Shown here: positions 10,342-11,709 of the stretch, piece by piece
Layout of the letters: each line of letters opens with the position of its first letter
Numbering within the stretch: the stretch's first letter is position 1
Source of the DNA: Candidatus Moraniibacteriota bacterium
GTDB lineage: Bacteria > Patescibacteriota > Minisyncoccia > Moranbacterales > UBA11712
Direction of reading: 5' to 3'
Assembly (NCBI GenBank): GCA_028695025.1
Contig: JAQVJV010000008.1
Location: 1 to 37,094 of the forward strand
DNA length: 37,094 bases
Made by a program: the position numbers and the translations under genes
Notes under the pieces: model-generated
Told to the model about the DNA's origin: nothing
Databases searched by the model: none
Seen by the model: only the letters and a program-made list of their open reading frames with translations

Positions 10342-10416
10342 TGGAGCGAGTGAGCGGAATCGAACCGCCGTCTTATGCTTGGCAAGCATATGTACTAACC
10401 ATTGTACTACACTCGC
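10342..10416 (-). tRNA. tRNA-Gly (anticodon GCC), CCA encoded
   Basis: Reverse complement: GCGAGTG TA GTAC..GTAC A TATGC-TTGCCAA-GCATA ... GGCGG-TTCGATT-CCGCT CACTCGC T CCA. Confidence 0.85.
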
Positions 10417-10418
10417 GA

Positions 10419-11096
10419 TTAATATTCCCTAGACAACAAATCAAGCCATATAAGAATTTTCTTTTTGAGATATTTGTTGCCTAGCTGGATTGAACATACT
10501 CCGTAACTAACTTTTCTGGTTTTGTGTCTGCCATCTATAATTACTGGTTTATAAACATTATTTTTGTTTATATCTAATCTTTTACTCCAGTAATCTATAC
10601 AATTTCCTTGATCCAAATCAGGATAAACTATAATGTTAATTTTTAATTTATCTTCACTAATCTTACAGACTTCAACTAAAAACCTTTTAAATATTCGAAG
10701 CAAATCACTGTCAATATTTCCCACCCTAACAATACCATTTGAAAAATTTTTATCTCCTTCTCCCCAGTATAGAGCCAAACCAAGAAGAAAAATCTTATTA
10801 TGCTTTAATTTTTCAAAATCATCTTTTGCTTCTTTCTCTGATTTTTTGTAAAAGTTATGCCATTTTATTTTTTTCAAATTATTCAGATGTTTTAGTCTTT
10901 TTCTGCTTATCTCTTTTGCTCTTTTAGTTAGTTGTCTCTGGATATTTTTCGACCAATCAATATCCCTAAGCCAATAGGAGACCGTACTCTTGGAAACGCC
11001 AAGAATTTCAGCTATTTGCCGATAGCTCTTTTTGGCTCTCCTTAATTTGATAGCTTGTAATTTCTTATCTTTATTCATGAACCTTTGTGAATACAT
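10419..11096 (-). CDS. putative free-standing LAGLIDADG-type homing endonuclease with N-terminal HTH domain
   Basis: N-terminal HTH (KKSYRQIAEILGVSKSTVSYWL). Single LAGLIDADG-like motif FLLGLALYWGEGDK (compare I-DmoI LLGLIIGDGG). Lies between tRNA-Gly and the intron-containing tRNA-Phe on the same strand. Confidence 0.45.
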   Translation of the reverse strand: MYSQRFMNKDKKLQAIKLRRAKKSYRQIAEILGVSKSTVSYWLRDIDWSKNIQRQLTKRAKEISRKRLKHLNNLKKIKWHNFYKKSEKEAKDDFEKLKHNKIFLLGLALYWGEGDKNFSNGIVRVGNIDSDLLRIFKRFLVEVCKISEDKLKINIIVYPDLDQGNCIDYWSKRLDINKNNVYKPVIIDGRHKTRKVSYGVCSIQLGNKYLKKKILIWLDLLSREY

Positions 11097-11148: not shown

Positions 11149-11477
11149 TGCCGAGGGAGAGAATCGAACTCTCGACACAAGGATTTTCCTTGTTGCTGAC
11201 CCGGATTTCTCCGGGAGTCGGACTATTTCATCCCCTCTCTTCGTGAAAAGAGGGGTCGGGCGCTGATGCAGGGTTATTGTCGGGCCTCACCTGCTAGTCT
11301 CTACACCTGCCTTCGCTAAAGCCACGGGCTTTCCCGGCGAAGGATTGGCTCGAGATTACCATATCCCGATTTTACATCGAAACTTAGGCTTCCTCGAATT
11401 CACCCGATTTTCATTTTCACATTGCTGTGAAACGGACCGAAAACCAGTCCTCTGCTCTACCACTGAGCTACCTCGGC
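11149..11477 (-). tRNA. tRNA-Phe (anticodon GAA) interrupted in the anticodon loop by a group I intron; exons 11446-11477 and 11149-11188 (junction +/-1 nt)
   Basis: 5' exon GCCGAGGTAGCTCAGTGGTAGAGCAGAGGACT. 3' exon GAAAATCCTTGTGTCGAGAGTTCGATTCTCTCCCTCGGCA. Spliced product has a Phe-like anticodon arm GAGGA-CTGAAAA-TCCTT, variable loop GTGTC and discriminator A. The exon-terminal U forms a U:G pair in a P1-like helix GGACUG/CGGUCC. The intron ends in G. Confidence 0.75.
11189..11445 (-). ncRNA. group I (IC3-like) self-splicing intron, ~257 nt, no internal ORF
   Basis: Core segments resembling the Azoarcus and cyanobacterial tRNA introns: GCCGGGAAAGCCCGTGGC, GAAGCCTAAG, TATGGTAAT, GAGCCAA, GAAGGCAGGTGTAGAGACTAGCAGG. 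Terminal G before the 3' exon. Confidence 0.7.
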
Positions 11478-11541
11478 TTGTTATATATTGTTCAAATAAC
11501 TGTGGGCGCGAAAAAACTTTCACCCCGCGCCAAAATCTGCG

Positions 11542-11615: not shown

Positions 11616-11709
11616 TATATAAGTTAGTCTGTAGTCAAAACTGCTTGCCCGCCAAAGTCCCGCCGAAAGCGGGACGGAGGCGGGAGCTACGCGCCCGTCT
11701 AAATAAATC

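Follow-up and report, generated by a model that had tools for sequence, protein, structure and literature searches.

A tRNA-Phe(GAA) gene of a Moranbacteria genome divided at position 33/34 by a group I intron, and its relatives in Patescibacteria

Can a tRNA-Phe(GAA) gene that is cut in two within its anticodon loop still supply a cell with tRNA-Phe? The question is raised by a locus on contig JAQVJV010000008.1 of assembly GCA_028695025.1, a metagenome-assembled genome (MAG) of Candidatus Moranbacteria, of which we analysed a stretch of 37,094 nucleotides (nt; positions 1 to 37,094, hereafter the window). An earlier note on this DNA had proposed that a group I intron splits the gene and had guessed correctly that the host is a bacterium of the candidate phyla radiation (CPR). 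Four proteins encoded in the window are identical to NCBI proteins in the range MDD3487216-20, which belong to a Candidatus Moranbacteria MAG. According to our analysis, the locus is a functional tRNA-Phe(GAA) gene carrying a 257-nt group I ribozyme without open reading frame (ORF), and ordinary guanosine-initiated self-splicing restores tRNA-Phe; we give this reading a probability of roughly 85%.

The divided gene and the fold of its intron

The tRNA-Phe(GAA) gene occupies 329 nt of the minus strand (11477-11149) and is divided between nt 33 and 34. Exon 1 (11446-11477, 32 nt) comprises tRNA positions 1-33 and ends in U33, while exon 2 (11149-11188, 40 nt; GAAAAUCC...GGCA) comprises positions 34-73 and opens with the anticodon GAA. 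The intervening sequence (11189-11445) starts with GGUUUUCGGUCC and ends with CAACAAG, its terminal omega-G being located at 11189. When the exons were joined in silico, a perfect cloverleaf with anticodon GAA and discriminator A73 was obtained, which ARAGORN names tRNA-Phe(gaa). The CCA end is not encoded, as CCC comes after A73. The coordinates proposed before, 11149-11477, are exact, and the spacer put at about 257 nt has precisely this length. The quoted halves were those of tRNA-Phe, but they had been given as the reverse complement of a gene that lies on the minus strand.

Searching the region alone (about 400 nt), the only setting in which the match was seen, Infernal aligned positions 11455-11199 of the minus strand to the full length of the group I intron model RF00028 (model positions 1-253 of 253; 76 bits versus a gathering score of 50; E = 1.1e-19). 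This match is far above chance, even when corrected for the 37-kb window. Together with the cloverleaf of the joined exons, it confirms that a group I intron resides in the anticodon loop of tRNA-Phe(GAA) at position 33/34. Moreover, the four core segments quoted in the earlier note, GCCGGGAAAGCCCGTGG, GAAGGCAGGTGTAGAGACTAGCAGG, TATGGTAAT and GAGCCAA, could all be located.

A structure including P10 and the P3/P7 pseudoknot was built by hand from the window intron; all its elements are on the minus strand. The internal guide sequence (11434-11443) contacts both exons. Its part GGUCC (11438-11434) pairs in P1 with the final five nt of exon 1, GGACU (11450-11446), placing a G.U33 pair at the splice site, and its part UUUUC (11443-11439) pairs in P10 with the first five nt of exon 2, GAAAA (11188-11184), which represent the anticodon plus A37 and A38. 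The P2 hairpin follows (11415-11432), with 7 bp and a GCAA loop of the GNRA type. The 5' strand of P3, UCGGGUG (11401-11407), precedes the P4-P5-P6 domain (11305-11397), in which P4 is formed by 11397-11392 with 11355-11350, P5 contains the motif CCUAAG...UAUGG (11388-11383 and 11363-11359), and P6, P6a and P6b extend over 11349-11305. We take the P5 motif to be the classical 11-nt receptor of GAAA tetraloops. The 5' strand of P7, G-A-GACUA with a bulged A (11295-11301), presumably holds the G-C pair that binds guanosine. Directly behind it lies a 27-nt hairpin, P7.1 (11268-11294), which consists of a 5-bp stem and the 17-nt loop UGAGGCCCGACAAUAAC. The 3' strand of P3, CGCCCGA (11256-11262), completes the pseudoknot, followed by the P8 hairpin (11232-11255; 10 bp here), the 3' strand of P7, UAGUCC (11220-11225), which pairs with the P7 5' strand, and the P9 hairpin with a GAAA tetraloop (11198-11219). 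Mismatches are absent from P1, P3, P4, P7, P7.1 and P10, and both exons are intact. Both an RF00028 match and a P3-P7 fold, whose lack the earlier note had named as speaking against an intron, are present. Inspection of the intron for an endonuclease gene revealed no credible candidate: the overlapping ORFs (20-83 amino acids) are spurious and none is located in a peripheral loop. When the window was screened loosely for paired P7 strands that could betray additional group I cores, the tRNA-Phe intron alone was returned.

Common annotation tools do not recover this gene. Whole-window Rfam scans, performed at the gathering threshold as well as with permissive E-value and filter settings, missed the intron because the speed filters discard the match, and ARAGORN run on the window with default settings did not report the interrupted tRNA-Phe. 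In the intron-aware mode of ARAGORN (-i), recommended in the earlier note, an intron-bearing tRNA was called at the locus, but as tRNA-Arg(ccg) with an intron of 241 nt. Standard pipelines would thus easily overlook the gene, listing the genome as lacking tRNA-Phe, or give it a wrong name. When an essential tRNA escapes default tools, the tRNA complements of MAGs may look incomplete although they are complete.

Related introns and covariation

Homologs were sought in one genome per GTDB species using the sequence ATAGTCC, i.e. the 3' strand of P7, with the 3' half of tRNA-Phe, beginning at G34, located 8-38 nt further on. At least 78 species genomes carry a genuine intron of 213-283 nt at position 33/34 of tRNA-Phe(GAA). 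The 120 matches listed break down into these 78 true introns, 19 uninterrupted tRNA-Phe genes and 23 boundary-truncated introns or other false matches. Judged by record title, the true matches derive from Moranbacteria, Magasanikbacteria, Falkowbacteria, Paceibacterota/Parcubacteria, Saccharibacteria, Berkelbacteria, Peregrinibacteria, Gracilibacteria, Liptonbacteria and unclassified Patescibacteria. Among the matches listed, none has an intron that exceeds about 75% identity to the window intron. U(-1) and omega-G are present in 73/73 strictly mapped introns, in agreement with the terminal G described for the window.

These 73 introns were aligned with the window intron and a published intron from Doudnabacteria using MAFFT, without fitting to structure (75 sequences). 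When the structure was laid on this alignment, 88.9% of the cells were paired, as compared to 76.0% in shuffled alignments and 33-48% when the partners were slid. Changes on both sides were observed in 63 of 83 pairs, and the covariation score amounted to 0.376 versus 0.153; none of 500 shuffles attained the observed score. P1 and P10 track the exons of each host, exemplified by the combinations GGACU/GGUCC, GGCCU/GGGCC and GGAUU/GAUCC for P1, and GAAAA/UUUUC and GAAGA/UCUUC for P10. In P1, an A-U pair is replaced by C-G in 9 sequences and a C-G pair by U-A in 4; in P10, which is 95% paired, U-A changes to C-G in 8 sequences. Every pair covaries in P2 (7/7 compensatory), P6a (7/7; 95.8% paired) and P7.1 (5/5; 94% paired). 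P3 (99.2% paired, 4 of 7 pairs changed on both sides) and P4 (99.8% paired) also covary, as do the basal pairs of P8 and the inner pairs of P9. P7 is 99.3% paired and essentially invariant, and covariation is therefore uninformative for this helix. About 70 of the 75 sequences have a GNRA loop as L2, and GAAA is found in the L9 region of 64.

The alignment also fixes the splice junction. The proposed P1-like helix, in which the U at the exon end pairs with G, is seen as U33.G in the window and as U.G in 75/75 sequences. An ambiguity of 1 nt at the junction, pointed out in the earlier note, is real, but it is resolved to 33/34 because the U.G pair is invariant, because P10 covaries with the 3' exon and because three homologs have introns beginning with A, which permit no other junction.

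The loop of P7.1 behaves differently from its stem. Its consensus, UGAG(U)CCCAACAAUAAY, is shared by most of the 75 sequences and hardly varies, while the stem covaries freely, a sequence pattern pointing to a binding site or tertiary contact. In a minority of introns (L013, L040, L061, L062, L089, L109), the place of P7.1 (alignment A1, columns 226-276) is taken by another insertion. Another peripheral element, the P6 extension of the window intron (CCUUCGC-YGGGAA...UUUNGCGAAGG, with a variable distal hairpin), recurs almost verbatim in three loci (L008, L077, L110) despite different tRNA-Phe exons and lineage labels; it could represent a conserved or exchanged module.

About 15 of the intron-bearing MAGs are titled Gammaproteobacteria, Bdellovibrionales or Nitrospirota (L010, L015, L018, L029, L043, L059, L060, L064, L073, L074, L095, L101, L103, L104, L121), and combine tRNA-Phe exons of the CPR type with an intron of the Patescibacteria type. 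Many of them also encode the protein family with a helix-turn-helix (HTH) domain and a predicted LAGLIDADG-like fold that is described below and otherwise seen only in CPR genomes. These taxonomic labels are probably wrong, since the contigs carry CPR-type exons. Matches in Nitrospirae, Gemmatimonadetes, Poribacteria, Myxococcales, Rokubacteria and Dechloromonas were rejected, since most of them are uninterrupted tRNA-Phe genes preceded by tATAGTCC, which looks like part of a promoter. This sequence, similar to a -10 box, is located 0-5 nt before uninterrupted tRNA-Phe in many non-CPR phyla (L028, L030, L035, L045, L099 and about 14 others); it resembles the P7 3' strand of group I introns and therefore generates false positives in the pattern scan.

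Splicing, the neighbouring protein and descent of the intron

The sequence elements, the covariation within the family and the exact exon junction are established, and they allow a scheme for splicing to be drawn. GGACU of exon 1 would pair with GGUCC of the guide sequence to form P1, so that U33 enters the U.G wobble defining the 5' splice site, which would then be attacked by exogenous guanosine from its binding site in P7. Subsequently, UUUUC of the guide would pair with GAAAA of exon 2 (anticodon and positions 37-38) to form P10, the intron-terminal G would enter the G site, and ligation of the exons would yield mature tRNA-Phe. The window intron is expected to be catalytic from its homology to introns with self-splicing activity in vitro.

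The gene is part of a same-strand cluster comprising rplS, tRNA-Leu(gag), tRNA-Val(tac), tRNA-Phe, an HTH ORF and tRNA-Gly(gcc). The sole promoter-like site on this strand is located upstream of rplS; in the scan for promoters and terminators, consensus matches were no commoner than in shuffled sequence. The spacer between tRNA-Phe and tRNA-Val contains a GC-rich hairpin (11500-11530; GGCGCG...CGCGCC), and the spacer between tRNA-Val and tRNA-Leu contains nested ones (11640-11690; CCCGCC/GGCGGG and TCCCGC/GCGGGA). From their sequence, these hairpins may be processing signals. The HTH ORF (10419-11096, minus strand) is located 53 nt downstream of tRNA-Phe, and tRNA-Gly(GCC) (10342-10416, minus strand) begins 3 nt past its stop codon. 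Exact-protein look-ups with the HTH ORF and L19 gave no match, the called start codons being different, and the only other contig encoding the ClpP protein ends before the tRNA cluster.

The HTH ORF is annotated only as such, and sequence profiles likewise detect an HTH and nothing else. The protein carries the LAGLIDADG-like motif LYWGEG, and a confident AlphaFold model (predicted local distance difference test score 93.3) predicts a LAGLIDADG-like fold; a Foldseek search with this model returned no significant match. The family has at least 1430 members, which are always encoded within tRNA clusters, and all those with a named organism are from CPR. A homolog lies beside an intron-bearing tRNA-Phe in about 46 loci among the matches listed. 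The homologs are abutted or overlapped by tRNA-Gly(GCC) in L122, L125, L128, L130 and L132, an arrangement also seen in remote CPR lineages (Magasanikbacteria, Kaiserbacteria), including loci without tRNA-Phe. We considered the ORF as a free-standing homing endonuclease acting in collaborative homing and rejected this possibility, as homologs flank uninterrupted tRNA-Phe genes (L130, L132) or occur without any tRNA-Phe (L122, L125). For the same reason the protein is not an intron-specific partner. The protein might be a domesticated derivative of a homing endonuclease acting in trans on tRNA genes or their group I introns, for instance a general maturase or a regulator of tRNA loci comparable to WhiA. 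We regard this as improbable; if true, the persistence of introns in reduced CPR genomes would be functionally tied to a dedicated protein.

Several points weigh against a functional, self-splicing intron. Splicing of this and other Phe 33/34 introns is a prediction from sequence, and 37 kb of the genome are visible, leaving room for a second, intact tRNA-Phe elsewhere. The structure tested was drawn from a sequence that is itself part of the alignment, which gives this structure an advantage in the sliding control, and the distal part of P5, P6b and P8 are poorly supported across the family (52-74% paired); P6b is lineage-specific, and P8, 65.7% paired overall, is poorly aligned in its distal part. 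In addition, the P7.1 loop of the window reads CCCGAC instead of CCCAAC, its G replacing an A shared by at least 90% of the family. This deviation from a nearly invariant position might be a sign of decay, leaving a catalytically dead intron in a tRNA-Phe pseudogene while the cell relies on another gene. That one contig of the MAG is visible and that related genomes live with an uninterrupted tRNA-Phe at this locus would fit such a relic as well. However, neither the core helices nor the exons show any damage, the RF00028 score clearly exceeds gathering and the cloverleaf is perfect. Furthermore, tRNA and Rfam scans found no second tRNA-Phe within the window, and CPR genomes normally possess one tRNA-Phe gene (Table S2, PMC13011429). 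We therefore consider a relic very improbable. In the single complete genome with a known Phe 33/34 intron, ARAGORN detects the interrupted gene and counts one tRNA-Phe; as the sole tRNA-Phe is interrupted, splicing must be essential there. The intron could also be a ribozyme that is not truly self-splicing and depends on a protein helper in vivo, for instance on the neighbouring HTH and LAGLIDADG-fold protein as maturase. This is hardly likely, because genes of the same family stand beside uninterrupted tRNA-Phe or in loci devoid of tRNA-Phe, their constant partner being tRNA-Gly(GCC), and because about 30 intron-bearing loci lack the gene despite room for it. Moreover, related Patescibacteria introns self-splice in vitro in the absence of protein (PMC13011429).

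A further question is whether the intron is an old resident or a recent arrival that entered an empty tRNA-Phe site by reverse splicing or recombination. L130 and L132, whose neighbour proteins are among the closest relatives of that of the window (57% and 51% identity), share the gene order RluA, L19, tRNA-Leu, tRNA-Val, tRNA-Phe, HTH, tRNA-Gly, and their tRNA-Phe is uninterrupted with the junction GGACU|GAAAA as in the window. A third relative (neighbour protein 58% identical) has an intron of 255 nt. With filled and empty tRNA-Phe genes in one synteny, the intron is therefore polymorphic at a single locus. Horizontal arrival would explain this variation, for which the empty site offers an exact P1/P10 target, and likewise the sporadic occurrence across many CPR classes and the P6 extension in common with differently labelled lineages. 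Yet the intron contains no homing endonuclease ORF, its guide sequence co-varies with the exons of each host, and the identities given above do not point to any recent donor. Intron divergence also follows that of the flanking gene: across 37 loci, intron distances correlated with neighbour-protein distances with a Spearman rho of 0.62, reached by 0 of 2000 Mantel permutations. A recent horizontal arrival thus appears unlikely, although it deserves more credit than the relic or the helper. Mostly vertical inheritance combined with losses is the most economical interpretation; the intron seems to have been lost repeatedly, or gained now and then, as the tRNA-Phe of close relatives is uninterrupted at this locus. 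The occurrence of filled as well as empty alleles in one synteny, along with co-divergence and the lack of an endonuclease gene, offers material for studying the persistence of ORF-less introns in very small genomes.

Comparison with known tRNA introns

The earlier note had assigned the intron to subgroup IC3, an impression explained by the core, which apart from P7.1 closely resembles that of Azoarcus-type introns. This assignment is contradicted by the covarying 27-nt P7.1 hairpin, inserted between P7 and the 3' strand of P3, and by alignment scores favouring introns typed IA1. In three tRNA introns typed IC3 (Nakagawa et al., supplement), P3' comes straight after P7 without P7.1 and the P7 strands are 31-40 nt apart, versus 68 nt in the window intron. 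In contrast, P7.1 is present and 59-75 nt separate the P7 strands in a group formed by the window intron, the Doudnabacteria Phe intron, the IA1-typed Nitrospirota Asn intron and the Patescibacteria Asn intron. Global alignment of the window intron with the IA1-typed/Patescibacteria group gave scores of 193.5, 191 and 166, as compared to 128 and 115 with IC3 introns and 107.5 with an IA3 intron of Elusimicrobiota. A P7.1 helix is drawn in the Patescibacteria tRNA-Asn intron family (PMC13011429), and none of the tRNA introns of Patescibacteria has been typed IC (Nakagawa et al. 2026, PMC13011429). Judged by sequence, the intron groups with the P7.1-bearing tRNA introns of Patescibacteria that the literature types IA.

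Host tRNA and insertion site, held to be unusual before, turned out to be known. The four classical types of bacterial tRNA introns had already been widened to 21 cases (Williams, bioRxiv 10.1101/2020.01.27.920355), position 33/34 is the classical insertion site in tRNA-fMet, and a tRNA-Phe(GAA) 33/34 intron has been published for Doudnabacteria GCA_016699995.1 (Nakagawa et al. 2026, mSystems, PMC13011429), next to a tRNA-Phe(GAA) 31/32 intron in an Elusimicrobiota genome (same study). The window intron itself adds little, because Patescibacteria tRNA introns including Phe(GAA) 33/34 were published in 2026. What exceeds the single published Phe 33/34 case is the structure backed by covariation and the breadth: with at least 78 species genomes from many CPR classes, this intron is far commoner than that case implies.

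Among the reference introns, the Doudnabacteria Phe intron yields the top alignment score (74% identity over 206 aligned positions). It shares with the window intron the host tRNA, the site, the logic of P1 and P10, the P7.1 loop and long identical core stretches, but it is shorter (211 versus 257 nt), has neither the P9 hairpin nor the extended P6, and is embedded in GCCU / GAAGA-type exons, for which its guide sequence compensates. Among introns validated by experiment, the nearest relative is the one at position 35/36 of a Patescibacteria tRNA-Asn(GUU) (GCA_016700035.1; 68% identity), which self-splices accurately in vitro (PMC13011429). It has the same core, the P5 motif CCUA..UAUGG, GAAA in L9 and a P7.1 loop, GUGAGCCCAACAAUAAUC, nearly identical to that of the window; it differs in the host tRNA and in its site inside the anticodon, and hence in the guide sequence.

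Resemblance to the classical introns is more limited. Those of cyanobacterial and other tRNA-fMet(CAU) also follow the universal U33 at position 33/34, but they are typed IC3 and devoid of P7.1, with 31-40 nt instead of 68 nt between the P7 strands and a score of 128 compared to 166-194. The introns of Azoarcus tRNA-Ile and Anabaena tRNA-Leu(UAA) are likewise compact, ORF-less ribozymes of the anticodon loop, and their P3-P4-P6-P7 core is very similar (AAUUCGG.GAA.CCUAAG, GAGCCAAG, GGUGUAGAGACUA). Presumably, the window intron also resembles them in its tertiary contacts, i.e. L9 GAAA with the P5 receptor and the GNRA loop L2. They differ in their sites (36/37 and 34/35), in the lack of P7.1 and in their published subgroup. 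The IA3 intron in tRNA-Phe of Elusimicrobiota GCA_023213235.1 has the host tRNA species in common with the window intron, but interrupts it at 31/32, has ACGACUA / AUAGUCU as P7, lacks P7.1 and gives the lowest score among the references (108 when rounded). Taken together, the intron is a further member of a type already known in tRNA genes of Patescibacteria.
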